Shown here: one piece after another, positions 3 to 54,258 of the stretch
How the letters are laid out: the number at the start of each line of letters is the position of its first letter
How positions within the stretch are numbered: the stretch's first letter is position 1
Assembly (NCBI GenBank): GCA_000991405.1
Contig: LBRL01000001.1
Span: 3,744 to 67,743 of the forward strand
Reading direction: 5' to 3'
DNA length: 64,000 nt
Origin: Candidatus Nomurabacteria bacterium GW2011_GWD2_36_14
Lineage (GTDB): Bacteria; Patescibacteriota; Minisyncoccia; Phycocordibacterales; UBA9973
Notes under the pieces: model-generated
What the model was told of the DNA's origin: nothing
The model's input: only the letters and a program-made list of their open reading frames with translations
The model's database searches: none
Translations under genes and position numbers: made by a program

Positions 3-173
3 ACAGTAACAACAGAGAATACTTCTACATCAGATAGTAGCACTACTATAGGAGGCACAACAACTACTACACCGTCAGATGTTGTAGCTCCAGATTCAAT
101 TACCAGTGAAGTAGTAACTCCTGCTGTAGAAGCACCAGCTGAAAGTACCTCGGTTGTAAGTAGTACGTTATAA
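3..173 (+). CDS. C-terminal fragment of a Thr/Ser-rich (probably secreted) protein; the gene starts upstream of the window
   Basis: The open frame runs from the window edge to TAA at 171-173. Translation is ..TVTTENTSTSDSSTTIGGTTTTTPSDVVAPDSITSEVVTPAVEAPAESTSVVSSTL, with low-complexity T/S/V composition like the surface proteins downstream. Confidence 0.3.
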   Translation, partial: TVTTENTSTSDSSTTIGGTTTTTPSDVVAPDSITSEVVTPAVEAPAESTSVVSSTL

Positions 174-1209: not shown

Positions 1210-1308
1210 GCAAAACAGTGTATAACTTTTTGCTATATATGGTTATATTGTTGTATAATAGACATGTAACATAATTTATCTTTTATTATAACTGTCAATT
1301 ATTTTTTT

Positions 1309-2364
1309 ATGATTAAGAAACTCACGAGTTCCGTTTTAATTCTCGGGATTATAATAATAAATTTTAGTTTTATAACACCACCCATTGCGATGGCGGCCAG
1401 TTTAACCTCTCTATCAGACACCGTATCCAATTTGACAGCCAGCACTGTAGCCAACCACGTTATCAGATTCACTACTCCGACCGGTGTTCCTGCAAGTGGA
1501 ACGATTATTCTTACTTTCGATAATGGTACCAATACAGGATCTGTTGATTATACAGATGTGGACATTCAAGATGATGGTGTTGATGTTGCTGTTGCAGCAA
1601 CTCCTGTAACTACAACGTGGGGAGTAGCCAGGACATCATCCACTGTTATTACTCTTACCAATGGTTCTGCTGCTGTTGCAGGCGGAAGTGTCATTACTAT
1701 AGATATAGGTACCAATGCAACTTATGGAGTTACAGGTACCCATCAGATTACCAACGGTACTGCGGGTACGACAGTTCTTCGTGTTAGTGGAAGTTTCGGA
1801 GATACAGGGGCCATGTCTACTGCCATTGTTTCCAATGGTGTTGTTTCTTTGTCAGCTGAAGTTCTAGCTTCTCTTACTTTTACTGTTTCTGATAACACCA
1901 TTTACTTTGGTAACTTGAAATCATCTGGTAGTTCATGTTGGGCACAAGGTACTGATCCTGGATATGTCACTTGTCCTACTGTCGCTGAGGCTGAGGCCTT
2001 CAATATGACCGCTGCCACAAATGCACCAACTGGTTATACTATAAGTGTCCAAGGGCCTACTCTAACCTCAGGTTCCAACACTATTACAGCTCTAGCTTCA
2101 GCCACTGCTCCTTCTATTGGTAGTGAACAATTTGGTATACGAGCCAATGCATCAGGTGGAAGTGGAGCCGTAAATGCAACTTATGGCACAGCAGGACAAT
2201 ATGCTTTCACTGCCAATGCTACGACAGCAGTAGCTGTGGCGACAGCCTCAGCTCCTTCGGCTACGACTACATACTCCGTTCGTTATATCGCCAACATTTC
2301 TCCCACAACAGAAGCAGGTAGTTATACCGCGGCACATACTTACATTGCAACGGGTAACTTTTGA
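1309..2364 (+). CDS. Secreted surface protein (paralog 2 of 3), function unknown
   Basis: It has a Sec-type signal peptide (MIKKLTSSVLILGIIIINFSFITPPIAMAA). It is ~65% identical along its whole length to the next ORF and ends in the shared ..TGNF tail. It is T/S/G/A-rich. Confidence 0.6.
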   Translation: MIKKLTSSVLILGIIIINFSFITPPIAMAASLTSLSDTVSNLTASTVANHVIRFTTPTGVPASGTIILTFDNGTNTGSVDYTDVDIQDDGVDVAVAATPVTTTWGVARTSSTVITLTNGSAAVAGGSVITIDIGTNATYGVTGTHQITNGTAGTTVLRVSGSFGDTGAMSTAIVSNGVVSLSAEVLASLTFTVSDNTIYFGNLKSSGSSCWAQGTDPGYVTCPTVAEAEAFNMTAATNAPTGYTISVQGPTLTSGSNTITALASATAPSIGSEQFGIRANASGGSGAVNATYGTAGQYAFTANATTAVAVATASAPSATTTYSVRYIANISPTTEAGSYTAAHTYIATGNF

Positions 2365-2405
2365 TTATTATTAGTTAATTATTGTTATTATTAATTTTAT
2401 TTTTT

Positions 2406-3458
2406 ATGATTAAAAAAATTTTGAGTTTTGTGTTAACGGTCGGAATGGTTGTTATAAATTTTGGATTTATAACACCACAGGTGGTTTCTGCTGCTAATTT
2501 GACTTCTATGTCAGACGTAGTGTCAAATCTAACAGCAAGTGCAGTTGCCAACCATACCATAACCTTTACAACACCTACAGGTCTTGCTTCTGGGGCAACT
2601 CTTATCCTTACCTTTGATAACAGTACCAGTATTGATGCTGCATTAACTTATGCAGACGTTGACTTTAGATATGCTTCCACCGATGTTACTTTGGCGGCGG
2701 CTCCATCTGGAGCAACTATGGGAGTAGTTCGTACTTCAGCAACGGTTCTTACATTTACCAATGGAACTACTGTGATTGCTGGAGGTTCAGTAATAGTGAT
2801 TAAGATAGGTACCAATACAACTATAGGTGGTACTGGAACTCACCAAATAACCAACGGTACTGCTGGCACTACACTCCTTCGTGTTAGTGGCACATTTGGA
2901 GATACAGGAGCTATGTCAATGTCAATAATTTCAAATAGTATCGTAGCTGTCTCAGCTGAAGTTCTCTCCAGTCTTTCCTTTACTGTTTCCAGTAATGCTA
3001 TTTACTTTGGTAACTTAAGAACGGCTGGTGCTTGTTTTGCTCAAAATACAAATCCAGGCTATGTAACTTGTCCGACTACAACAGAAACTGAAGCTTTCAA
3101 TATGACAGCTGGAACAAATGCTACAGCTGGTTATACTATAAGTGTCCAAGGTGACACTCTGACCTCAGGAGCCAATACTATTACAGCCCTAGCTTCAAAC
3201 ACGGCTTCTTCTCCTGGTAGTGAACAATTTGGATTGAGAGCAACAGCTACAGGTGGAGGAGGTGCAGTTCAGGCTCCATATGCAGCCGCTGGTTATGCTT
3301 ATACAGGCACAACATCAACTCCAGCCACAGTGGCTACTGCTTCAGCTCCATCCGCTACGACTACATATTCCGTTCGTTATTTAGCCAACATTTCAGCTGT
3401 AACAGAAGCAGGAAGTTATTCTACCTCTCATACTTATGTAGCAACAGGTAACTTCTAA
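2406..3458 (+). CDS. Secreted surface protein (paralog 3 of 3), function unknown
   Basis: The start was moved to the Met of MIKKILSFVL at 2406, which matches the paralog 2 N-terminus. It is collinear with paralog 2: SNLTAS.VANH.I.FTTPTG, LRVSG.FGDTGAMS, YFGNL, GYVTCPT, GSEQFG(I/L)RA, TTTYSVRY.ANIS, ATGNF. Confidence 0.6.
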   Translation: MIKKILSFVLTVGMVVINFGFITPQVVSAANLTSMSDVVSNLTASAVANHTITFTTPTGLASGATLILTFDNSTSIDAALTYADVDFRYASTDVTLAAAPSGATMGVVRTSATVLTFTNGTTVIAGGSVIVIKIGTNTTIGGTGTHQITNGTAGTTLLRVSGTFGDTGAMSMSIISNSIVAVSAEVLSSLSFTVSSNAIYFGNLRTAGACFAQNTNPGYVTCPTTTETEAFNMTAGTNATAGYTISVQGDTLTSGANTITALASNTASSPGSEQFGLRATATGGGGAVQAPYAAAGYAYTGTTSTPATVATASAPSATTTYSVRYLANISAVTEAGSYSTSHTYVATGNF

Positions 3459-3483
3459 TTATTATATATTTCTTGGTAATTAA

Positions 3484-5308: not shown

Positions 5309-6199
5309 ATGAGAAAAATTATAATATTTACAATCTTTTTTATCTTAAATTTATTTATAACAAATAAGATATTTGCTGCCACTTTGACATTAGTTTCTTC
5401 AAAGGAATCTCTTGGTGTTGGTGAACAATTTTACATGGATCTCATGTTAGACCCAGAAGGAAAATCATTAAATGCCATAGAGGGAAATATTTCATTCTCG
5501 AGCGATTATGTTTCTTTCGTTCGAGCTGAGGAAGGTAAATCCATTGTCAGTCTGTGGGTAGAGAAACCAAAACTAAATAATATTAACGATAATTCTATTA
5601 ATTTCTCTGGGATTATACCCAATGGATTTAGTGGTGTTATTGATCCATTTAATCCTAAATATAAATTATCAGTCTTAGTACTTCGTTTTGTTTTTGAAGC
5701 TAAAAAGCCAGGAATAGCCAACTTTTCTTCCTTGCCTTTTTCTTTATATCTAAACGATGGATTAGGTACCGAGATAAAAGCGCTCCCCGTTAATATGTCA
5801 CTCAATATTGATAATTTTGTTTTTCATTACACATATGAGAATAAGAATGAAAGCATTCCAACCTTAGAAGCACATGTCGTACGTACTCCAAATATTTTTA
5901 ACAACAAGTATACTATCATTTTTGATGCTAGAGATAAGGAAGTAGGAATAAAAAGTGTATTTATAAAAGAAGGTAACAGCGAATGGAAAGAAATAGAAAG
6001 TCCATATAAACTTGAAGATCAATCTCGTCATAGTGACATCACCTTACAAGCTATCAACTTTTCTGAAGCTAGTATTATTATGAAGATTGATAAAGTACCA
6101 TATAGTATAAAGTTTTATATTCAAATAATTATTATTATTCTTATTGTTACTATTTCTTCTATTATTTTAATTCGAAAGAGATATCTTAAAGATAAATAA
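5309..6199 (+). CDS. Cohesin-like domain protein with a C-terminal transmembrane anchor (putative membrane-bound scaffoldin)
   Basis: It has a signal peptide. LTLVSSKESLGVGEQFYMDLMLDPEGKSLNAIEGNISFSSDYVSFV..GKSI fits the cohesin N-terminal strand pattern (V.V....V..G..F.V.V......gi.a..f.l.yd...L). The C-terminal segment FYIQIIIIILIVTISSIILIRKRY is a membrane anchor. Confidence 0.5.
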   Translation: MRKIIIFTIFFILNLFITNKIFAATLTLVSSKESLGVGEQFYMDLMLDPEGKSLNAIEGNISFSSDYVSFVRAEEGKSIVSLWVEKPKLNNINDNSINFSGIIPNGFSGVIDPFNPKYKLSVLVLRFVFEAKKPGIANFSSLPFSLYLNDGLGTEIKALPVNMSLNIDNFVFHYTYENKNESIPTLEAHVVRTPNIFNNKYTIIFDARDKEVGIKSVFIKEGNSEWKEIESPYKLEDQSRHSDITLQAINFSEASIIMKIDKVPYSIKFYIQIIIIILIVTISSIILIRKRYLKDK

Positions 6200-18694: not shown

Positions 18695-20671
18695 TTATAT
18701 CAACGTATAATCTATCGTCTTCTTATTCATATCTGCTCCCACAACTTTAAATTTTGCTTTATCACCCAAGGTATATTTCTTGTGAGTCTTCTGACCTCTG
18801 ATACTCATGAACTTTTTATCGAAAATATAATAATCATCTTTGAGATCTCTCATCCTTATCATACCTTCGCATTTAGTTTCTTTTTCTTCTACGTATAGAC
18901 CCCATTCTGTCACTCCAGTAATGATACCTTCGTAAGTCTGACCTACTCGCTTAGACATATACTCAACTTGTTTGTATTTGATCGATGAGCGTTCTGCTTC
19001 AGCTGCCTCCTTCTCTTGGCTTGAAGCCTCCTCGCTCATGTGTTCATACTCGTACCACTTCTCTTTGGGTATAGCCTTATTAGCTAGGAAGTCTTTTAGT
19101 AGTCGGTGCACTATCACATCAGGGTAGCGTCTAATAGGTGAAGTGAAGTGAGTATAGAATTTAAATCCGAGGCCATAGTGGCCAATATTTTTAGTGGAGT
19201 AGATAGCCTTGGCCATCGTACGGATTATAGCTGTGTGAACTGTATCGCGGAGAGGGTTATGTTCTAGTTTACCTATTAGTATATTTATTTCTTCCGAGGG
19301 AATTATGCCATCCTTAAGCTTCATGTGGTAGCCAAGCCTTTTTAGGAAGGTAGCCAGGTCACCCATTTTATCTTTGTTGGGTAAGTCGTGGATTCTATAA
19401 AGGAAGACGCTTTGTTTGCCAATTTTTTTGCCAGACATATACTCAGCTACACGACGATTAGCAAGAAGCATAAATTCTTCCACAAGCTTATTTGTATCTC
19501 CTCGTTCTTTTGTATAGACAGATATAGGTACACCATGCTCGTCCAATTTAAATTTAACTTCTTCTTGTTCTAGCATTATTGCTCCTTCGTCGAATCTTTT
19601 TTTATTAAGTTTTTTAGCAATCAGATTCAATATATTTAATTCATCGTAGAATTCACCTTTTTTGTTATCTAGAATTTTTTGAGCATTTTCATATGTAAAT
19701 CTTTTGTCAGAGTGAATAATTGTTTCTCCGAACCACTCACTGTATATTTTGCCATTCATATCAAGCTCAAATACAGCCGAGAAGGTGAGTCGGTCGACAT
19801 TTGGATTTAGACTACAGAGTCCATTTGAAAGCTCCTCAGGTAGCATAGGTATTGTCCGATCTACAAGGTAGACAGAAGTGCCTCTACTTTGAGCTTCATC
19901 ATCGAGAGCTGTGTTTAATTTTACATAATGAGTTACATCAGCAATATGAATACCAATTTCAAGATGTCCATTTAGGAGTCTTTCAAGAGAGATGGCGTCA
20001 TCGAAATCTTTTGCATCGACAGGGTCTATAGTGAATGTTGTCACAGAACGCATATCTCTACGATCTTTTAAATCTTTTTCTGTGATTCCACGTTTAGATA
20101 TTTCAATTGCCTCTTTTTTTACTACAGAAGGGAAGTCAGCCGAGAATCCTTTCTCCAGAGCAATCGCTTCCATTTCGGCATTATGCTCCATGGGCATTCC
20201 TAGGATTTTATTTACTTCTCCTATTGGGGCTTTTTTTGCATCTTTCCATTCTGTAATAATTACGAAAACTTTTTGTCCGATTTTAGCCCCGGCTAGTTTG
20301 TTCTCGGGGATTATAATGTCAGCATACATTCTAAGGTCACTAGGTATCAGGAAGTAGGTATCGTTTTCTTTTTCAAGTACCCCGGAATATCCCTTCTTAG
20401 AACGACGGAGAATTTCTACCACTTCGCCAGTCTGGGTTAATCCTGATCTTTTAGGATGAAGCAGAACTTTGACGGTATCGCCATGGCAAGCTGTATGTAG
20501 GAAGCTATGCTCTATTTCTATAGTGTCGTCTTTACCCTTTATTCGCACTACCCCCATACCTTTATGAGATATAGTGATTATCCCTTCTGCATGCCTATCT
20601 ATCTTTTGTTTTTGCCTCGAATCCATTTTATGTTGTTTTATCTTGTTTTTCACAATGTCAGTATAGCACAA
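18695..20671 (-). CDS. rnr: Ribonuclease R (RNB family 3'-5' exoribonuclease)
   Basis: The RNB motif is TIDPVDAKDFDDAIS, with a C-terminal S1 domain. The start may be the Met at 20626. Confidence 0.9.
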   Translation of the reverse strand: MCYTDIVKNKIKQHKMDSRQKQKIDRHAEGIITISHKGMGVVRIKGKDDTIEIEHSFLHTACHGDTVKVLLHPKRSGLTQTGEVVEILRRSKKGYSGVLEKENDTYFLIPSDLRMYADIIIPENKLAGAKIGQKVFVIITEWKDAKKAPIGEVNKILGMPMEHNAEMEAIALEKGFSADFPSVVKKEAIEISKRGITEKDLKDRRDMRSVTTFTIDPVDAKDFDDAISLERLLNGHLEIGIHIADVTHYVKLNTALDDEAQSRGTSVYLVDRTIPMLPEELSNGLCSLNPNVDRLTFSAVFELDMNGKIYSEWFGETIIHSDKRFTYENAQKILDNKKGEFYDELNILNLIAKKLNKKRFDEGAIMLEQEEVKFKLDEHGVPISVYTKERGDTNKLVEEFMLLANRRVAEYMSGKKIGKQSVFLYRIHDLPNKDKMGDLATFLKRLGYHMKLKDGIIPSEEINILIGKLEHNPLRDTVHTAIIRTMAKAIYSTKNIGHYGLGFKFYTHFTSPIRRYPDVIVHRLLKDFLANKAIPKEKWYEYEHMSEEASSQEKEAAEAERSSIKYKQVEYMSKRVGQTYEGIITGVTEWGLYVEEKETKCEGMIRMRDLKDDYYIFDKKFMSIRGQKTHKKYTLGDKAKFKVVGADMNKKTIDYTLI

Positions 20672-20735
20672 AAATGACAGTCTTTATTTGTTTATTCAAC
20701 CTAGATCTTAGAACTTAATGTGATATAATTTTATT

Positions 20736-21596
20736 ATGGAAGAACATAAAAAAATTCTAAAATTACTAGATATTTGGGAAAATGATATTAGTATTAAATC
20801 TATAGATGGAGGGATGACAAATAATAATTATTTTGTCAGTGATGGTAATAAAAAATATATTGCCCGTTTTGCTCCCCACAACACAAAAATCCTTGGTCTT
20901 AATCGTCAAAAAGAAATACAAAATACAAAAATTGCATCAGAAAACAACATAGGGCCAGATGTAAAAAAATATTACAAAAATTATGACTTACTTATTCTTG
21001 AATTTATAGAAGGAAATATTCTTTCTGTGGGTGTAGCACAACAAATTGATACCATTAAAAAAATAGCAGAATTGTTTTTGAAATTGCATTCCCTTGCTGG
21101 TTTTAGTGGAAATAGGTTACCTTTGCAAAGAGCAGAGAGCTACTTTAATGAAGTTAAGTCAAGAAATGGGTGGATACCAGATAATCTTGAAGAAAGTTTT
21201 ATTAAAACAAAAGAAATAATTTCGCAACTGAAACCTTGTGTTTCGTGTTCATGTCATCTTGATGTTATGTTAGAAAATGTGATTGTTTGTAGTGATGGTA
21301 ATTTAAAATTAATTGATTGGGAGTATTCTGAAAATGCAGACCCTAGATATGATTTGGCAATGTATATTATTAAAGCTAAATTAAACAGAGAACAAGAAGA
21401 ACATCTCTTTTTGTGTTATGGCATAAACAAAGAAGAAGATAAACAAGATATAAGAAAGATGAAAACCTTAGTTGCACTAGCTGAGGCAACTTATGGTGTT
21501 TTGCAGAATGTTATTTCTGACAGAATATCTGTAGGTTATAGGGAATATGCTGAATCTGAACTTAAGGAACTAGAAAGTCTTTTGACTGATGTTTAG
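20736..21596 (+). CDS. Phosphotransferase of the APH / choline-ethanolamine kinase family
   Basis: It has the catalytic loop HLDVMLENVIV (HxDxxxxN) and IDWEYS (the DFG-equivalent). Confidence 0.7.
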   Translation: MEEHKKILKLLDIWENDISIKSIDGGMTNNNYFVSDGNKKYIARFAPHNTKILGLNRQKEIQNTKIASENNIGPDVKKYYKNYDLLILEFIEGNILSVGVAQQIDTIKKIAELFLKLHSLAGFSGNRLPLQRAESYFNEVKSRNGWIPDNLEESFIKTKEIISQLKPCVSCSCHLDVMLENVIVCSDGNLKLIDWEYSENADPRYDLAMYIIKAKLNREQEEHLFLCYGINKEEDKQDIRKMKTLVALAEATYGVLQNVISDRISVGYREYAESELKELESLLTDV

Positions 21597-21656
21597 TTTT
21601 TACCATAATCTCTGTTTGGGGATACTTCCAAGTTCGGAACTAATAAAATACCATAC

Positions 21657-21683
21657 AAATACTTGCTCGTTTTGTGTCTTTAT
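21657..21683 (+). repeat. 26-bp direct repeat aatacttgctcgttttgtgtctttat (copy 1), upstream of fic
   Basis: It matches 23064-23090 exactly. Confidence 0.85.
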
Positions 21684-21833
21684 TTGTTATATAAAGATTT
21701 GTATTTTATTAACTAATACTCATAGAGTTAAATAGTCTTATTAATCCTTGTTAAATCTTAATAATATATATTATTGAAAAAAGTCTACAAATGAAGTATA
21801 ATTTGATGGTATTGTTAAATCATATAAATAATA

Positions 21834-23009
21834 TTGTTAAATCATATGGAAGAAAATAATCAAATAAATAAGGTACAAATTCCAACTTTCCCTTTTGAGA
21901 GTAAATTGGCTGATTTAATCATTAGTTTAGACCATTTGAGAAGTGGTCAAATACAAGGAACAACGCCAGTAAATATTTTTATGGACTTAAAAAAATTATT
22001 TCATTTATTGGAAAGTGTTCAGTCTACAAGAATAGAAGGGAATAGAACAACAATATTAGAAGCTATAGAAAAAAAGATTGAGAATGAAAAAATCAATAAT
22101 GATGAAGGGTGGAAGGAAATTGAAAATATAGAAAAAGCATTACAGTTTATTGAGACACATGTTGAGAACGGAAAAATTGATAGAATATTTATTTCTGAGT
22201 TACACAGAATAGTCGTATTTGATTTAGTCAGAGAAGGAAGCAAAAACCCTGGTAATTTTCGAATTGAACCTGTTAAAATAACCAACTCAAAACATATACC
22301 CCCCTCAGGAACTATCGTGGAAAGTTACATGAATGAATTATTAGATTTTATAAACGAAAAACATGGTAATAAATATGATTTAATAAAAGTTGCAGTAGCA
22401 CATCATAGATTTACATGGATACACCCATTTGATAATGGTAACGGAAGAATGTCTCGTCTTCTTACTTATGCGATGCTTATGAAATATGGTTTTAGAGTAC
22501 AAAATGCCAAAAGAGTTTTAAACCCTACTGGATTATTCTGTGTAGATAGAAACAAATATTATGATATGCTCCAAGAAGCAGATTTAAATGGTAATAATGG
22601 GCTAATTAAATGGTGTGAGTATGTTTTGGGTGGACTTGTTGGAGAAATAGAAAAGATAGATAAACTTACAGATTATGAATATCTTAAAAAAGAAATAATT
22701 TATCCTTCCATTACATATGCCAATAAAATGGGAACAATAACAAAGGAGGAGATGTTTATTTTATCCCTTGCTCTAGACAAAGAGGTTCTTGTTGCTGGTG
22801 ATATAAAAGAAGTATTTCCAGATTATTATTCAGTTAAAGTTTCAAGGATGATAAAAGAGTTAAGAGATAAAAATTACTTAAAGCCATTCCCTAATGAAAA
22901 TAGCAAAAGTTACGTTATTAATTTTTCAGATAATTTATTATTAAAATATTTAGCAAAAGAACTATACAATAAAGGTTTTATATTAAGTGATACGAAAGAA
23001 GATTTTTAA
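21834..23009 (+). CDS. fic: Fic-family AMP transferase (class II, with an N-terminal inhibitory helix motif)
   Basis: The Fic motif HPFDNGNGRMSRLL (HPFx[DE]GNGRxxR) and the inhibitory STRIEGN ([ST]xxxE[GN]) motif near the N-terminus. Confidence 0.85.
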   Translation: MLNHMEENNQINKVQIPTFPFESKLADLIISLDHLRSGQIQGTTPVNIFMDLKKLFHLLESVQSTRIEGNRTTILEAIEKKIENEKINNDEGWKEIENIEKALQFIETHVENGKIDRIFISELHRIVVFDLVREGSKNPGNFRIEPVKITNSKHIPPSGTIVESYMNELLDFINEKHGNKYDLIKVAVAHHRFTWIHPFDNGNGRMSRLLTYAMLMKYGFRVQNAKRVLNPTGLFCVDRNKYYDMLQEADLNGNNGLIKWCEYVLGGLVGEIEKIDKLTDYEYLKKEIIYPSITYANKMGTITKEEMFILSLALDKEVLVAGDIKEVFPDYYSVKVSRMIKELRDKNYLKPFPNENSKSYVINFSDNLLLKYLAKELYNKGFILSDTKEDF

Positions 23010-23063
23010 TATTTATTATTGTATAATCTCTTTTTGAATATCATATTAAGTTCTGATTCACAT

Positions 23064-23090
23064 TAATACTTGCTCGTTTTGTGTCTTTAT
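23064..23090 (+). repeat. 26-bp direct repeat aatacttgctcgttttgtgtctttat (copy 2), overlapping the rpsP promoter region
   Basis: It matches copy 1 exactly. It is followed by taggat (a -10-like hexamer) 10 nt before the rpsP ATG. Confidence 0.85.
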
Positions 23091-23108
23091 GGTAGGATAC
23101 TTTTACAT

Positions 23109-23414
23109 ATGTTAAAGATAAGATTACAAAGAATAGGGCGCAAGAATGATCCAGCTTTTAGAGTACTTTTGACAGATTCTAAGAACTCAGCTAAGAGTGG
23201 TAAATTTAAAGAAATCTTGGGTTCATACAATCTAAAGAAAGGCGAAGTTATATTCAAGGCAGACCGCATCAAGCATTGGATAAGTGTTGGAGCTCAGACT
23301 TCAGATACAGTTCACAATTTCCTAGTTAGCCAGAAATTAATAGAAGGCAAGAAGAGAAACGTACTTTCGAAAAAGTCTCCAACTAAAGCTAAAAAAGAAC
23401 TTAAAAAAGCATAA
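23109..23414 (+). CDS. rpsP: 30S ribosomal protein S16
   Basis: MLKIRLQRIGRKNDPAFRV... is the bS16 N-terminus. The start was set at the ATG at 23109. Confidence 0.9.
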   Translation: MLKIRLQRIGRKNDPAFRVLLTDSKNSAKSGKFKEILGSYNLKKGEVIFKADRIKHWISVGAQTSDTVHNFLVSQKLIEGKKRNVLSKKSPTKAKKELKKA

Positions 23415-40401: not shown

Positions 40402-40596
40402 ATTGTTTTTTGTCTAAGGCGAACCTATAGACTTTATGGTTAATTAATTATAATACTAACCGTTTTTAAGCATTCCAGCTCGCCCGACCATAGGTCTAGG
40501 GCTTATTTACAAAGGTCTTTTAAACAAAAAAGTCCTTCACGGAAAGTACCCACATAATACCAGAAAAAGCATTATTTTGCAAATAGAATTTTCACT

Positions 40597-45917: not shown

Positions 45918-47216
45918 ATGAAGAAAGCTATTGATTTTAAAATTGAAAAAAGGTTAGAGGGATTTCTAGGTAGAGCAGGGACTCTGACTACACCGCATGG
46001 AGTTATTGAGACTCCGTCTTTTGTCGTTGTAGGTACAAAAGGTACAGTCAAGGCCATGACTCCCGAACAACTCAAGGAGATAGGTGTGCAAGTTACACTT
46101 GCCAATACTTATCATCTTTATCTACAACCAGGAAATGAGCTTATACGTGAGGCAGGAGGTTTGCACAAGTTCATGAATTGGCAGGGGCCCATGATGACAG
46201 ACTCTGGTGGATTCCAAGTATTTTCTCTTGGTGTGGCTTACGGCAAAGAGCTTTCCAAAGTTGTTTCTGTAACTGATCCTAGCTTGCTTATTCCGGAAAG
46301 GTCCACGGCAGAAGATGGAGTACCAAGACTTGCAACCATAGGGAACGATGGAGTTTCTTTCCGATCACACTTAGATGGATCGCTTCATTATATAACTCCA
46401 GAAAAGTCTATCGAGATTCAGCACAACTTAGGAGCCGATATTATATTTGCTTTTGATGAATGTACTTCTCCGACTGAGACTGCTCGATACCAAGAAGAAG
46501 CTCTTTCTCGTACTCACTCTTGGGCCAAGAGGAGTTTGGAGGAGCATAAGAAACGGGAGGAAGCAAAGCAAGAATATGCGAATTCTTCACGCTTTACCCT
46601 AAAGGGCTCCGACGCGACTCAGAATTCTCATATTCTTGCTTCACTTCCTCAGGCTCTCTTTGGTATTGTTCAAGGTGGACGTAGTGAAGAACTTAGGAAG
46701 AAGTCTGCTAAAGTTATAGGAGAAATGGACTTCGATGGTTTTGGTATTGGTGGTTCTTTTGCAAAAGAGGATATGTCTACTGCTGTAAAGTGGGTCAATG
46801 AAGTGCTCCCAGAAGACAAGCCTCGCCATTTACTAGGTATCGGTGAACCGGAAGACTTATTTTCTGGAGTAGAAAACGGAGTAGATCTCTTTGACTGCGT
46901 CGGCCCTACTCGCATTGCTCGCAACGGGACAATGTTTACAAAGAACGGCAAGATAAATATTCTCAATGCAAAGTTTGTAAAAGATTTTGGTTCAGTAGAT
47001 GAAGGGTGCGGTTGTAATACTTGCCAGAATTATACTCGAGCTTATCTTTCACATTTATTCCGTGCCAAGGAAATGCTAGGAGCAACCCTTGCTTCTATTC
47101 ATAATGTCTACTTCATCACAAATCTTGTAAAGCAAATGCGCAATGCTATACTAAATGATACATTCCATGAATTTAAAAATGAATTTTTAAAAAATTATGC
47201 CAAACAAAGTATTTAA
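45918..47216 (+). CDS. tgt: Queuine tRNA-ribosyltransferase, carrying an in-frame ~24-aa insertion
   Basis: TPHGVIETPSFV..., LGIGEPEDL and the zinc site CGCNTCQNYTRAYLSHL. The start is the ATG at 45918. The insertion QEYANSSRFTLKGSDATQNSHILA lies between WAKRS and ALFGIVQGG. Confidence 0.9.
   Translation: MKKAIDFKIEKRLEGFLGRAGTLTTPHGVIETPSFVVVGTKGTVKAMTPEQLKEIGVQVTLANTYHLYLQPGNELIREAGGLHKFMNWQGPMMTDSGGFQVFSLGVAYGKELSKVVSVTDPSLLIPERSTAEDGVPRLATIGNDGVSFRSHLDGSLHYITPEKSIEIQHNLGADIIFAFDECTSPTETARYQEEALSRTHSWAKRSLEEHKKREEAKQEYANSSRFTLKGSDATQNSHILASLPQALFGIVQGGRSEELRKKSAKVIGEMDFDGFGIGGSFAKEDMSTAVKWVNEVLPEDKPRHLLGIGEPEDLFSGVENGVDLFDCVGPTRIARNGTMFTKNGKINILNAKFVKDFGSVDEGCGCNTCQNYTRAYLSHLFRAKEMLGATLASIHNVYFITNLVKQMRNAILNDTFHEFKNEFLKNYAKQSI
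46569..46638 (+). repeat. In-frame palindromic miniature element (copy in tgt)
   Basis: caagaatatgcgaattct-tcacgctttaccctaaagggctccgacgcgactc-agaattctcatattcttg. It has 18-bp inverted arms and a conserved 30-bp core that is nearly identical in uvrA and uvrC. Confidence 0.85.
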
Positions 47217-49922: not shown

Positions 49923-52598
49923 ATGATAAAAAAAAGTGAAAATTCTGACGGGGCAAGAATAATAATAAAAGGAGCTCGTACTCACAATCTGAAGAATATT
50001 AGTGTTGAGATGCCTAGGAATAAAATGATAGTTATTACTGGTATGTCAGGCTCTGGGAAGTCTTCTTTGGCGTTTGATACTATCTTTGCTGAAGGTCAGC
50101 GTCGCTATGTGGAGAGTCTTTCGGCTTATGCCCGCCAATTCTTGAATCAAATGCCGAAGCCCGATGTCGATGAGATTACTGGTCTTTCTCCTGCTATTTC
50201 TATAGACCAGAAGTCTCGGTCGAACAATCCTCGTTCGACAGTTGCGACCATCACTGAAATATATGACTATCTTCGTGTTCTTTATGCACGTATCGGGCAC
50301 CCTCATTGTCCAGAATGTGGCAATGAGATCAAGAAGCTTTCAAATGATGAAATACTTCACTTTGCCATAGATAAGATAAAGAATTTTCAAAAGGATAACA
50401 AGAAAAAGAAAGTAATGGGTGTCGAATGGAACGAAGCACCTATCTCCATTCTTGCTCCTGTTGTTCGAGGTAGGAAAGGTGAGTATTATCAACTTCTTTA
50501 TGATTTACTCAATAAAGGATTTGCCGAGGTTCGTCTCGATGGACAGATCAAGAAACTAAGAGAGAGAATCGATATTACGAAGACAAAGAAACACGACATA
50601 GAAGTTATCGTAGATACTTTCGCTATTCATGAATTTAAAGACAATGAGAAGGATTCTTACTCAAGATTAGCTGAGAGTGTTGAGAGGGCTCTATTAGAGT
50701 CAGACGGACTTGTAATTATTAAAATAGATGAAGATGAATACCTTATGTCTTCCAAGTTCTCTTGTGCTATTGACGGCTTCGCTTTTCCTGAAATAGAGCC
50801 TAGGCTCTTCTCTTTCAATTCTCCGTACGGAGCCTGTCCTACTTGTAATGGGCTTGGTACCAAGTATTTTGGTGGCACAGAGCCCTGCGATGATTGTAAG
50901 GGCTTGCGATTACGACCTGAAGCACTTCATGTATATTTAGGCCAATCCGCTTCGCAGAAACATAAAAATTCTTCCCGCTTTACCCTAAAGGGCTCCGACG
51001 CGGATAAGAATTTTCATGTTTCTGCTTCGCTTAACATTGTAGATGTTACGAAGTTATCAATCGCTGATGTTGCTGACTTTTTTATTGAACTACAGTTGAA
51101 TGATCAAGAAAAGGAAATTTCGAAGGTTGTCATAAAAGAGATTGAAGCTCGAATACAATTCTTACTGAACGTAGGGCTTGATTATTTATCACTCGATAGA
51201 AAAGCCAATACTCTCTCAGGAGGAGAAGCACAGAGGATACGCTTGGCTTCACAGTTAGGTTCACGACTTGTCGGAGCTTTGTATGTACTCGATGAACCGA
51301 CGATAGGTTTACACCAGAGAGATAATGATAAACTCATCAAGACACTAGAAAATCTTCGTGACCTAGGGAATACTATCATAGTAGTTGAACACGACGAAGA
51401 TACTATATATGCATCGGATTATATTGTAGATATAGGCCCGAAAGCTGGAGTACATGGAGGGCAAGTTATCGTGTCGGATTATTTACAAGATTTACTAGAT
51501 GCACCAAAGAACGTTTCTAATTCTAGAACTTTGGCATATCTTAGAAATGAAGTCAGAATAGAAATTCCAGAGAAAAGAAGGAATAGTGATAAGGGTGCTA
51601 TTAAAATAATTGGAGGTAAAATTTTCAATATTGAAAATTTAAATGCGGAAGTTCCACTAGGAAAGCTTGTAACTATTACTGGAGTATCAGGAAGTGGGAA
51701 GAGTTCCTTTGTGTATGAGATTATTCACAAGAATCTTCAGGCCAGATACGAAAGGAAGTTTAGAACAGCAAAGATTTTCAACTGTGCATCTTTCACTGGG
51801 ACGGAATATGCTTCTCGCGTCGTTCTTATCGATCAGTCTCCGATAGGCCGTACTCCTCGCTCCAACTTGGCTACTTATACAGGCGCCTTTACTCATATCC
51901 GTGACATGTTTGCCTTAAGTGAAGAAGCAAGGCTCAAAGGTTGGAAGGCCAATAGATTCTCTTTCAATGTGAAAGGTGGGCGTTGTGAAGCTTGTGAAGG
52001 TAATGGCGAGGTAGCGGTAGAGATGCACTTCCTTCCTACTGTGTATGTCACTTGTGACGTATGTAATGGCAAGAGATTCGATAAGGAGACCCTGACTGTG
52101 AAGTACAAGAAGAAGAATATTTATGAAGTTCTTCAAATGACAGTTGAAGAAGCGATTGTGTTTTGGGAAGATATTCCGGCTGTTTATGATCGTATGAAGA
52201 CTCTTATGGAAGTCGGTCTTGGCTATGTGAAACTTGGTCAGTCTGCTACAACTCTCTCAGGAGGAGAAGCACAACGTGTGAAAATTTCTTCAGAACTTTT
52301 TAGACCATATGAAGAGAAAACAATATATCTATTAGACGAGCCAACAGTTGGACTTCATTACGATGATGTAGCTAAGTTGCTTGAAGTTTTGAATAGACTT
52401 GTAAATAAAGGCAATAGTGTAGTGGTAATAGAGCACAATATGGATATTATAAAGTCTTCAGACCATATCATAGATATTGGTCCTGAAGGAGGGTTAGGTG
52501 GTGGCAAGATTGTAGCTAAGGGAACTCCTGAAGAAGTTGCTAATACAATAGGAAGTCATACGGGTAAATATCTTAAAAAAGTTTTGAAGAGGAAATAA
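49923..52598 (+). CDS. uvrA: Excinuclease ABC subunit A (short, 891 aa), carrying an in-frame insertion
   Basis: It has two ABC modules (GMSGSGKSSL, GVSGSGKSS, LSGGEAQR twice) and zinc fingers. The insertion QKHKNSSRFTLKGSDADKNFHVSA follows PEALHVYLG. Confidence 0.95.
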   Translation: MIKKSENSDGARIIIKGARTHNLKNISVEMPRNKMIVITGMSGSGKSSLAFDTIFAEGQRRYVESLSAYARQFLNQMPKPDVDEITGLSPAISIDQKSRSNNPRSTVATITEIYDYLRVLYARIGHPHCPECGNEIKKLSNDEILHFAIDKIKNFQKDNKKKKVMGVEWNEAPISILAPVVRGRKGEYYQLLYDLLNKGFAEVRLDGQIKKLRERIDITKTKKHDIEVIVDTFAIHEFKDNEKDSYSRLAESVERALLESDGLVIIKIDEDEYLMSSKFSCAIDGFAFPEIEPRLFSFNSPYGACPTCNGLGTKYFGGTEPCDDCKGLRLRPEALHVYLGQSASQKHKNSSRFTLKGSDADKNFHVSASLNIVDVTKLSIADVADFFIELQLNDQEKEISKVVIKEIEARIQFLLNVGLDYLSLDRKANTLSGGEAQRIRLASQLGSRLVGALYVLDEPTIGLHQRDNDKLIKTLENLRDLGNTIIVVEHDEDTIYASDYIVDIGPKAGVHGGQVIVSDYLQDLLDAPKNVSNSRTLAYLRNEVRIEIPEKRRNSDKGAIKIIGGKIFNIENLNAEVPLGKLVTITGVSGSGKSSFVYEIIHKNLQARYERKFRTAKIFNCASFTGTEYASRVVLIDQSPIGRTPRSNLATYTGAFTHIRDMFALSEEARLKGWKANRFSFNVKGGRCEACEGNGEVAVEMHFLPTVYVTCDVCNGKRFDKETLTVKYKKKNIYEVLQMTVEEAIVFWEDIPAVYDRMKTLMEVGLGYVKLGQSATTLSGGEAQRVKISSELFRPYEEKTIYLLDEPTVGLHYDDVAKLLEVLNRLVNKGNSVVVIEHNMDIIKSSDHIIDIGPEGGLGGGKIVAKGTPEEVANTIGSHTGKYLKKVLKRK
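50955..51024 (+). repeat. In-frame palindromic miniature element (copy in uvrA)
   Basis: cagaaacataaaaattctt-cccgctttaccctaaagggctccgacgcggat-aagaattttcatgtttctg. The arms are complementary to each other but differ from those of the tgt and uvrC copies. Confidence 0.85.
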
Positions 52599-52992: not shown

Positions 52993-54258
52993 ATGAATAG
53001 TCAACAGGTCAAAAAAATAGGTTTGCCAGATAAATCAGGGGTTTATTTTTTCAAGGTGGGGGATAAGATTCTCTATATAGGCAAGGCCACTTCTTTGCGG
53101 GATAGGGTAAAGAGCTATTTTTCTAAGGATATCATCGTTACCAGAGGGTCACATATCTTAGATATGACGGTAAAAGCGGATAGGGTAGAATGGCAGGAAA
53201 CTGGTAGTGTGCTGGAAGCCTTAATACTTGAGGCGAACTTAATAAAGAAATATAAGCCGAAATACAATACCAAAGAGAAAGACAATAAGAGTTTCAACTA
53301 TGTCTGCATTACCAAAGATAAATTACCCAAGGTTTTAATTGTTCGTGGTAGAGGAATGGATAAAAAGTTGTATAGCAAAGTTTATGGTCCATTCCCCAAT
53401 GGTCAGCAATTAAAAGAAGCGATGAAAATCATTCGTAGAATTTTCCCGTATTTTGATAATGATTCGTTAAAGAAAAATAATAGAGAATTTTACAAACAAA
53501 TAGGATTAGTACCTATAGTTGAATATAAAAACAATATAAAGAATCTTAAATTATTTTTCGAAGGGAAAAAGAAAAGCATAATAATAAATTTGAAGAAGGA
53601 AATGCTAGCTTTTGCAAAAAAGAAAGAATTCGAGAAAGCTGGTGAAGTTAAGAATAGAATTTTTGCTTTGAATCATATAAATGATGTTGCTCTTATAAAA
53701 GAAGATTTAATTGCTCCACAGAAAAACGCTTCACAGGAATATGCGAATTTTTCGCGCTTTACCCTAAAGGGCTCCGACGCGACTCAAAATTCGCATATTC
53801 CTGTTTCGCTTTTTCGTATCGAAGCTTATGATGTGGCTCACATGGGAGGCAAGGATATGGTGGGAGTTATGACTGTCGTTGAGAATGGTGAAGTCAATAA
53901 AAGTGAATACAAGAAGTTCATTATCAGAACTCAAAGTGATGCGAATGACACAGGAGCACTCGAGGAAGTACTTTCTCGTAGATTGCGTCATACAGAGTGG
54001 GGACTACCTAGTTTGGTTGTTGTCGACGGTAGTACCGCTCAAGTAAATGTGGCCAAGAGAATTCTTGCCAGATATCAGTTTAAGGTACCTATAGTCGGAG
54101 TTGTGAAAGATGACAAACATAGACCGAAAGCACTTATAGGGAGTGAAGAAATAATTAAAATATACAAAAAGCAGATCCTACTTGCCAATAGTGAGTCGCA
54201 TAGGTTTGCAATTACTTTCCATAAACAAAAGAGAAATAAAAGTTTCTTAAATAAGTAA
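52993..54258 (+). CDS. uvrC: UvrC-like excinuclease (GIY-YIG N-terminus; short, lacks the C-terminal HhH/RNaseH-like region), carrying an in-frame insertion
   Basis: The GIY-YIG motif is GVYFFKVGDKILYIGKATSLRDRVKSYF. A UvrBC-interaction-like region is present. The insertion is QEYANFSRFTLKGSDATQNSHIPV. Confidence 0.75.
   Translation: MNSQQVKKIGLPDKSGVYFFKVGDKILYIGKATSLRDRVKSYFSKDIIVTRGSHILDMTVKADRVEWQETGSVLEALILEANLIKKYKPKYNTKEKDNKSFNYVCITKDKLPKVLIVRGRGMDKKLYSKVYGPFPNGQQLKEAMKIIRRIFPYFDNDSLKKNNREFYKQIGLVPIVEYKNNIKNLKLFFEGKKKSIIINLKKEMLAFAKKKEFEKAGEVKNRIFALNHINDVALIKEDLIAPQKNASQEYANFSRFTLKGSDATQNSHIPVSLFRIEAYDVAHMGGKDMVGVMTVVENGEVNKSEYKKFIIRTQSDANDTGALEEVLSRRLRHTEWGLPSLVVVDGSTAQVNVAKRILARYQFKVPIVGVVKDDKHRPKALIGSEEIIKIYKKQILLANSESHRFAITFHKQKRNKSFLNK
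53734..53803 (+). repeat. In-frame palindromic miniature element (copy in uvrC)
   Basis: caggaatatgcgaatttt-tcgcgctttaccctaaagggctccgacgcgactc-aaaattcgcatattcctg. It has perfect 18-bp arms. Confidence 0.85.

Follow-up and report, generated by a model that had tools for sequence, protein, structure and literature searches.

A kinase and fic insertion between rnr and rpsP in a Candidatus Nomurabacteria genome, flanked in part by a duplicated piece of the rpsP promoter

Why should a gene for a Fic protein stand between two perfect copies of the same 26 nucleotides, one of them directly in front of rpsP, the essential gene for ribosomal protein S16? The question is raised by a locus of Candidatus Nomurabacteria (Paceibacterota, within the candidate phyla radiation, CPR) from Rifle aquifer groundwater. 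The 64-kb stretch of this genome that was analysed is referred to here as ‘the window’; counts given for the window are counts in these 64 kb, and related genomes and contigs are coded by L-numbers. On the plus strand, the locus comprises a kinase gene (20736–21596), fic (21846–23009) and rpsP (23109–23414), followed by KH, trmD and rpoB. On its minus-strand side lie rnr, a polysaccharide deacetylase gene and a PGA_cap gene. We conclude that kinase and fic make up a block of 2.4 kb inserted between the divergent rnr and rpsP genes. The account we favour, with moderate confidence, is that the duplicate piece of promoter is the scar of stepwise general recombination. The locus is a real but fairly ordinary gene-acquisition scar, composed of known kinds of things in an unusual host.

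The repeat, AATACTTGCTCGTTTTGTGTCTTTAT, occurs exactly twice in the window, at 21658–21683 and 23065–23090, both times on the plus strand. The first-pass annotation of this DNA had described perfect 26-bp repeats bracketing fic, and this is what we find, except that its start coordinates were one base too low. Hairpin repeats aside, they form the sole exact direct repeat of at least 18 nt that flanks a gene in the window. Could the 26-mer be a generic regulatory or promoter element whose flanking of fic is incidental? The architecture to which it belongs, TTGNNN-17-TGnTANNAT, is common in the clade, but the 64 kb available hold no further copy, even with up to three mismatches (none is expected, from 100 shuffles), so the 26-mer is no generic motif there. 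In the loci of relatives, moreover, the orthologue of the 26-mer region is found at rpsP only, and IMG/VR holds no match to the 26-mer. Searching databases with the 21-nt core of the promoter returned a single further match, from a metagenome contig collection (L099, JXWU01035588.1, 621–672). This is a 1.2-kb phage-like contig, with PHROG matches, in which the 21-mer lies in coding sequence, at the 3' end of a 74-amino-acid (aa) open reading frame (ORF), and the match extends no further; it is probably due to chance. The 21-mer is followed there by ATTTTGTTGATTC, which resembles the GTCTTTAT-TTGTTTATTC found at 20680–20697 of the window. We consider it highly improbable that the repeat is such a generic element.

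The two copies differ in status, and the right-hand one (23065–23090) is the resident. Alignment to L104, L109 and L011 identifies it as the −35 hexamer of the rpsP promoter, TTGCTC (23070–23075), with the first 15 nt of a 17-nt spacer. The extended −10 that follows (TGg-TAGGAT, within 23090–23108, plus strand; hexamer at 23093–23098) is recognizable from the sequence and from relatives' promoters, and is separated by 10 nt from the ATG at 23109. Positions 23069–23108 align over 40 nt with the rpsP upstream regions of L109 (92.5% identity) and L104 (90%), and the same native promoter type is present in three relatives that lack the insertion (L104, cgCTTGCTCcTTTTGTaTCTTTATgtTAGtAT; L109, gggCTTGCTCcTTTTGTaTCTTTATGGTAGGAT; L011, gcTTGCTCcttttacatctttatggTAGGAT). 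Twenty-two of the 26 repeat bases are demonstrably native −35 and spacer. More widely, 62 of 66 distinct rpsP upstream regions of relatives have the form TTGNNN-16..18-TANNNT, 4–12 nt 5' of the start codon, and 59 of the 66 have TG at −15/−14. The right 26-mer is a piece of the native rpsP promoter, as the first-pass annotation had proposed when it placed the −35 and spacer here, with 10 nt between promoter and ATG. From the position of the extended −10, the rpsP mRNA would be leaderless or nearly so across the clade. An extended −10 of the form TGnTAnnnT, 6–10 nt from the start and without a Shine–Dalgarno sequence, occurs not only at rpsP (23090–23111, plus strand), but also at rnr (20651–20668, minus strand) and kinase (20721–20738, plus strand), and this suggests that leaderless transcription may be widespread in the clade.

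What did the site look like before kinase and fic were present? The locus was found, via TrmD, in 80 GTDB species representatives, onto which the proteins of the window were mapped; 49 of these have rnr and rpsP in divergent orientation. The two genes are adjacent in 28 of the 49, with a gap of at most 217 bp. In the other 21 the slot is taken up by 0.4–3.4 kb of different content, such as genes for hypothetical proteins, for a collagen-like protein, or for a TPR/PMT glycosyltransferase pair. Kinase and fic are absent from this site in all 49. RNase R identity led to closer lineages. In L100–103 (GW2011_GWF2_35_66-type, RNase R 92%), L104 (91%) and L109 (90%), rnr and rpsP are adjacent with a single promoter copy, and these are empty sites of the kind that the first-pass annotation suggested might exist in relatives. 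The L105–108 lineage (RNase R 89%) carries a different gene in the slot, of 186 aa and with a terminator, and without promoter duplication.

Native homology ends on the left at 20679, where L011 reads gcacagaaatgata and shares gcaca[g/a]aaatga[t/c]a with the window, and resumes on the right at 23069. Since the intervening DNA is also absent from all relatives, the block at 20680–23068 (plus strand), which comprises a kinase unit, a fic unit and intergenic DNA, is a lineage-specific insertion. To its left is the native rnr start (20651–20679, minus strand), recognized by conservation: a GTG at 20653, a −10 TATACT (the reverse complement of 20660–20665) with its TG, and then the native spacer. 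The sequence ttcacaatgtcagtatagca is conserved here in L011, L100, L104, L105 and L109; on the minus strand it reads TGcTATACT-6 nt-GTG, and is a putative leaderless rnr promoter. In L104 no more than 11 nt lie between the rnr −10 and the rpsP −35. The insertion occupies the only tolerated gap between these back-to-back promoters, which accounts both for the varied content of the slot in relatives and for the sharp edges of the insertion.

Different small elements fill the slot in different lineages. L100–103, for example, have a perfect palindrome with 22-nt arms (CCCCCACACCTATATTTTTATT...AATAAAAATATAGGTGTGGGGG) between the divergent promoters. In L057 (7885–8982), a whole small-gene unit is duplicated in tandem, the promoter regions being 80% and the terminators 92% identical, and so unit duplication also occurs at the rnr–rpsP slot. 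We considered L057 as a parallel case of promoter duplication and set it aside: it is a tandem duplication of paralogues, and a different phenomenon.

The composition of the block agrees with acquisition. GC content is 0.287 in fic and 0.300 in kinase, where the genes of the window average 0.366; both fall within the bottom six of 47 genes, and they are among the lowest in GC at third codon positions too. The first-pass annotation had supposed fic to be a recent acquisition in a core-gene neighbourhood, and had pointed to its composition as a check. Acquisition is upheld by the low GC and by the empty sites in sister lineages; ‘recent’ holds in a relative sense only. The insertion is younger than the split from lineages with ~90% RNase R identity, and every sampled contig carries it. 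The arrangement is identical in nine contigs from different samples (NCBI, ENA and JGI records), which makes an assembly artefact unlikely. Seven of the nine can be compared base for base and have zero differences in the region; the other two are shifted by indels elsewhere. The insertion is thus clonal as well as fixed in this species as sampled, and population polymorphism gave no dating.

What, then, is the left copy? The left 26-mer (21658–21683, plus strand) is identical, base for base, to the −35 and spacer of rpsP, but the sequence after it is TTGTTATATAAAG, where rpsP has GGTAGGAT. It is an orphan by-product without a usable −10: the promoter scan reports no promoter-like site of correct spacing there, and the hexamers at 17–19 nt are poor. 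A 7-bp hairpin, TCTTTAT/ATAAAGA, spans the junction at 21677–21697 by folding. One explanation, raised in the first-pass annotation, is that a copy of the rpsP promoter fragment was placed before fic so as to drive or co-regulate the gene. The copy does retain an intact −35 and spacer, and is oriented toward fic, and exact identity over 26 nt beside poorly conserved flanks could reflect selection. The native −10 has been replaced, however, and the left 26-mer lies 163 nt 5' of the fic ATG, its −35-like hexamer being ~111 nt upstream of a −35 that belongs to fic itself. That promoter, TTGAAA-17-TATAAT, matches the consensus at 11 of 12 positions in the promoter scan. It is conserved, moreover, in homologues of fic that have no 26-mer, and because fic carries this conserved promoter of its own, the left copy was not made to drive it. 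We regard promoter copying as distinctly improbable.

The promoter and operator region of fic (21748–21845, plus strand), as defined by the scan and by homologues, has its −35 at 21774–21779, its −10 at 21797–21802, and three boxes of the form TTGTTAAATC[TA]T, at 21748, 21812 and 21834. One box lies 5' of the −35 and two lie between the −10 and the ATG; 0.13 occurrences would be expected in the window, against the three observed. The same three-box layout is shared by the fic homologues L090–93 (73–74% aa identity), L112 (71%) and L110 (60%). Nucleotide homology with L090–93 spans 21748–23009, and ends at the stop codon. The homologues otherwise lie in unrelated contexts, one of them being near rplS beside a T5orf172 gene, and in L112 there are no direct repeats of 10 nt or more around fic. 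The gene appears, from these comparisons, to be a self-contained module expressed from its own predicted promoter. Between the module and the left repeat are 64 nt (21684–21747, plus strand) with no homologue in relatives or at other fic loci. On its other side, 55 nt (23010–23064, plus strand) separate the stop codon from the right 26-mer; they contain ATAATCTCTTTTTG (23023–23036), which resembles 21605–21618, and no terminator or significant fold.

In the short contig L093 (1271–1345), the sequence that directly follows fic is similar to an AviRa methyltransferase gene at its 3' end, together with a motif downstream of it, as found in L090 (5690–5770); in the sister contigs the motif lies 5' of fic. 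L093 may represent a second case of flank duplication around a fic module.

The kinase has a separate history. Its product (286 aa; gene at 20736–21596, plus strand) is a small-molecule kinase of the choline/APH family, matching Pfam Choline_kinase and APH; its NCBIfam matches, the best of which are GntI and thiamine kinase, all fall below their cut-offs. An extended −10, TGaTATAAT (20721–20729), lies 6 nt from the ATG, and serves as its own predicted leaderless promoter. Only six homologues were found in a collection of 5.8 billion proteins. Those examined (69%, 68% and 45% identity) are in unrelated contexts without fic, and homology to them is limited to the ORF. Kinase is bracketed, in addition, by a 13-nt repeat of its own that overlaps the 26-mer. 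The absence of a fic neighbour in the homologues and the separate 13-nt repeat therefore mark kinase as an independent cargo, and the suggestion that it had travelled with fic is not sustained.

The sequence of this 13-nt repeat, GTCTTTATTTGTT (21676–21688), runs across the point where the left 26-mer ends on its 3' side, and it recurs as a third, partial repeat copy at 20680–20692 (plus strand), beginning exactly where homology on the native rnr side ends. A match of that length arose in 11 of 3000 shuffles, and in none of 392 real low-GC segments. From left to right, the intergenic regions read ...gcacaa aaatgaca GTCTTTAT TTGTT tattc... before kinase; AATACTTGCTCGTTTTGT GTCTTTAT TTGTT atata... 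between kinase and fic; and AATACTTGCTCGTTTTGT GTCTTTAT GGTAGGAT... between fic and rpsP. The 13-nt repeat of the kinase unit and the 26-nt repeat of the fic unit overlap on GTCTTTAT.

Perfect direct repeats immediately bracketing a foreign segment bring to mind a classical transposon or insertion sequence, with the 26-mer as its target-site duplication, and the first-pass annotation had offered this reading too. Transposon target duplications are usually 2–14 bp in length, and 26 bp is far beyond this. The block contains two ORFs only, and it has no transposase, integrase or terminal inverted repeat, the features by which a transposon or insertion sequence would be recognized. The homologues of fic elsewhere, moreover, are without such flanking repeats. 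One inverted repeat spans the block (20710–20726/23038–23054, 16 of 17 positions), and it is the only one to do so; it is weak (blastn E 0.04–0.07 within the window), near chance by our estimate, and not terminal, and we rejected it as a candidate for transposon ends. Insertion by transposition is very improbable here, and the notion of a target-site duplication in this sense has to be given up.

Homologous exchange has left visible traces at this locus. Compared with the sister L100 (reverse complement, ~5596–5927), the window has 100% identity over 23083–23368, and three mismatches follow before the rpsP stop is reached; near-identity resumes in the 5' part of the KH gene, from 23488 to at least 23617. 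Neighbouring genes of the two are about 75–87% identical, and other relatives are 79–94% identical to the window in rpsP. The pattern points to rpsP having been exchanged very recently, by homologous recombination, between two Nomurabacteria species co-resident at Rifle, the sister being GW2011_GWF2_35_66. The identical stretch begins at 23083, which is the first base of GTCTTTAT.

We propose the following route. Divergent rnr and rpsP normally have their core promoters almost back to back. Two single-gene units with related ends would have been placed in tandem, in either order, by recombination within promoter sequence, and the left 26-mer would have arisen when the fic unit was joined beside the kinase unit. 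The agent would be the general recombination machinery of the cell. Its substrate would be DNA from related strains, anchored through homology at rpsP or rnr and joined at the other end through the short identity of GTCTTTAT or the 26-mer. Homology-facilitated illegitimate recombination (HFIR), unequal crossover, or Campbell-type integration could each accomplish this, with no part for a dedicated transposase or integrase. Selection would do the rest: rpsP would be expressed only in those products that kept its −35 and spacer beside TAGGAT. The duplicated piece would be a promoter, then, because rpsP must retain its −35 and spacer next to its −10, and the succession of left part, whole and right part at the three junctions would result if two units were joined in tandem inside a short sequence that they have in common.

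This reading is supported by the empty sites, the orthology of the right copy, the autonomy of fic, the independence of kinase, the lack of mobility genes, the low GC and the other genes that fill the slot in relatives. Chance, moreover, hardly explains the third repeat copy at the left edge, and homologous exchange is visibly active at the locus. A parallel is offered by the arrays of Vibrio cholerae type VI secretion system (T6SS) orphan immunity genes and by orphan Rhs arrays, for which stepwise HFIR has been proposed (PMC5361080, which refers for the mechanism to de Vries & Wackernagel 2002 and Prudhomme 2002). There, too, unrelated cargo is added stepwise beside a conserved anchor, older cargo is pushed aside but kept, a recombinase gene is missing, and short duplicated remnants of the anchor side are left behind (PMC5361080). 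The differences are that in our case a gene for a ribosomal protein would be the anchor, together with its promoter, in a member of the CPR, and that the mechanism is deduced, intermediates not having been found.

Several observations weigh against stepwise recombination as we have set it out. No haplotype with a single cargo (rnr–kinase–rpsP or rnr–fic–rpsP) was found, nor any donor with fic beside an rpsP promoter, and the closest homologues of fic (74%) and kinase (69%) sit in other contexts. The diagnostic junctions would be CCATACA-26mer-GGTAGGAT for a locus without fic and AAATGACA-GTCTTTAT-TTGTTATATAAAG for one without kinase; the predicted fic-less or empty-site junction (CATACA-26mer-GGTAGGAT) is absent from metagenome contigs, a result of little power as the source population was not returned there. 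Among the 21 relatives with other inserts at the same slot, no promoter duplication was seen, so that the mechanism is not demonstrably general. The similarity 5' of the two 26-mers is weak: local alignment leaves only ATAATCTCT[G/T]TTTG, which matches at 13 of 14 positions and is reached by 30 of 5000 shuffles, and homeologous flanks are accordingly unproven. An extended duplication of 81–87 bp, suggested by MAFFT and repeat tools, was downgraded to weak on the strength of this alignment. The copy count of the 26-mer covers the 64 kb, and promoter activity, leaderless starts and autoregulation are all read from sequence.

The same junctions could be explained differently, by site-specific recombination. 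The units would then be integrase-less cassettes, resembling cis-mobilizable elements (CIMEs) or integron cassettes, moved by a recombinase supplied in trans; the attachment site, with GTCTTTAT as its core, would lie within the rpsP promoter. The left junction would be attL (aaatgaca-core-TTGTT), an attP-like site would lie between the cassettes, and the right junction would be attR (O'-core-GGTAGGAT), the −35 arm of the cassette rebuilding the promoter. The three junctions match attL, attP-like and attR exactly, and so fit this proposal as well as they fit stepwise recombination. Homology to the sister L100 breaks exactly at the first base of GTCTTTAT, and both units start with TTGTT and end with related blocks and an identical 18-nt O'. 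On the other hand, the O' arm has its orthologues in the native promoters of L104, L109 and L011, which lack the insertion, and is thus not specific to cassettes, and the implied attB would be without the −35 that is kept in 62 of the 66 relatives. The block encodes no integrase, and a search of the block and its neighbouring genes revealed neither integrase nor recombinase; the flanks are syntenic core genes, and there is no attC-like or significant fold (z −0.3 to −0.6), which is not what an integron cassette would lead one to expect. Nor is there a structured RNA: no Rfam match lies near the locus, and folds of both 3' regions, on both strands, gave z of −0.6 to +0.8. The 26-mer, as already noted, is absent from IMG/VR, and no other copies of the unit ends are present in 1.4 Mb of relatives' loci. 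A circle formed by the 1407-bp fic unit would have the junction TTCACATT-AATACTTGCTCGTTTTGTGTCTTTAT-TTGTTATATAAAG (TCACATT-26mer-TTGTTATAT), and no such circle junctions were found, a weak negative as the collections did not return the source population.

Known islands flanked by att sites, such as those that target tRNA genes or grow by CIME accretion, have direct repeats that rebuild the target gene. The present locus resembles them in having direct repeats of tens of base pairs that flank the insert, one repeat within the intact host element, and a reconstituted site between tandem units. It differs from them in that there is no integrase, the repeat is a promoter and not the 3' end of a gene, and the units are single genes of 1.0–1.4 kb. 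Of the marks by which islands are recognized, flanking direct repeats with a single copy at the empty sites of relatives are present, and an integrase is lacking from the block and the adjacent genes. We judge the cassette explanation unlikely. Its strongest form, in which the rpsP promoter is a true attachment site for recombinase-less single-gene cassettes that bring their own promoter and a 3' arm to rebuild the −35, accreting in tandem like integrons without attC under a recombinase in trans, we judge rather improbable. Stepwise general recombination remains the reading we prefer.

What kind of Fic has been acquired? The protein has 387 aa (21846–23009, plus strand), and it matches Pfam Fic, the structure PDB 7XUX, and PADLOC SoFic. 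It belongs to the Fic/Fido group by the Pfam profile PF02661, at 59.2 bits against a cut-off of 24, over residues 115–211; the Fic_N profile, at 25.8 bits, is just below its cut-off of 26.7. The putative catalytic motif, HPFDNGNGRMSR, begins at His193 and reads H193-P-F-D-N197-G-N-G-R-M-S-R204. Compared with the canonical HxFx(D/E)GNGRxxR, the fifth position is Asn, and the His, the Phe, GNGR and the final Arg are kept. The first-pass annotation had called the gene a class II fic with an inhibitory STRIEGN, and the Pfam match and the position of the motif bear it out: S60-T-R-I-E64-G-N66 (residues 60–66) conforms to (S/T)xxxE(G/N), and lies ~130 residues before His193.

Among solved structures, the nearest is that of CccR from Yersinia pseudotuberculosis (PDB 7XUX), to which residues 16–379 of the window Fic align along 15–377 of the chain (E 2.8e-94). 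Both proteins have HPFxNGNGR (CccR, HPFGNGNGRTVR), with Asn in place of the usual acidic residue, and SxRIEGN as well. CccR consists of a FIC domain plus, at the C terminus, a helix–turn–helix (HTH) domain; it has been shown experimentally to repress its own promoter via AGATAATCAT boxes of 10 bp that lie close to the −35 and −10, and its AMPylation target is FtsZ (PMC9755527). Secretion of CccR by a T6SS and FhuA-dependent uptake have been described, and its target residue, Thr8 of FtsZ, is reported to be conserved in Enterobacteriaceae only (PMC9755527). The alignment makes the window protein a predicted full-length Fic of the CccR type, C-terminal DNA-binding (HTH) domain included. The resemblance may extend to the operators: in the window and at four homologous loci, three TTGTTAAAT boxes are placed around the −35 and 3' of the −10, a likeness to CccR operators that we draw from sequence comparison. 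CccR has one inverted pair of boxes, whereas the window fic has three direct repeats of TTGTTAAATC, and a CPR host. By analogy, the C-terminal HTH probably binds the three TTGTTAAAT boxes and autorepresses the fic promoter.

A second relative is SoFic, a single-gene anti-phage defence (PDLC03963; PMC12249575), which the window protein matches in its PADLOC profile (E 2.7e-47, residues 48–357), and which it resembles also in being a single gene in a variable slot. It differs in scoring only 41 bits against the 550-bit cut-off of the NCBIfam SoFic equivalog, and in that the 99-nt gap before rpsP is too small for a downstream antitoxin gene like AS1. The protein is best described as a predicted class II-type, CccR/SoFic-like Fic, and from these affiliations we infer a role as toxin or in defence. 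No match to fic was found among phage records, and plasmids gave three distant matches. One homologue, at 60% identity, lies in Candidatus Uhrbacteria (L110, 281–6934) inside a type I restriction–modification operon of the order hsdS–DUF3644–Fic–hsdR. That setting is consistent with a role in defence for the family.

The remaining features of the window can be mentioned briefly. The gene rpsP itself encodes a protein of 101 aa (23109–23414, plus strand; Pfam Ribosomal_S16, 51.9 bits). A family of 78-nt palindromic repeats, 81–90% identical, occurs at 46569–46646, 50955–51032 and 53734–53811; its core, CGCTTTACCCTAAAGGGCTCCGACGCG, is similar to a sequence 3' of rpsP in L100, and the family may be an element resembling repetitive extragenic palindromes (REP) or miniature inverted-repeat transposable elements (MITE), or else a shared terminator. 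Two further families of GC-rich hairpin repeats, at 40596/42030/42737 and 8952/9565 (AAAACCGACTAGGCAAGACCTAGTCGGTTTT and TTACAATTAAGAAACGGCCGTTTCTTAATTGTAA), are probably terminators. At 1303–3465 there are tandem paralogous genes of ~1.1 kb each, with DNA identity of 72–76%.

None of this overturns current views, although if the rpsP promoter were a true attachment site, then the junctions would belong to a new cassette system. With a Fic of the CccR/SoFic type now identified in Patescibacteria, and with the three-box layout of its promoter conserved, autoregulation becomes directly testable. The exchange of rpsP between co-resident species bears on the amount of recombination in CPR populations. 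And the locus as a whole provides a clean, base-resolved example of the gain of accessory genes by an ultra-small CPR genome, in which a promoter was preserved by duplication.

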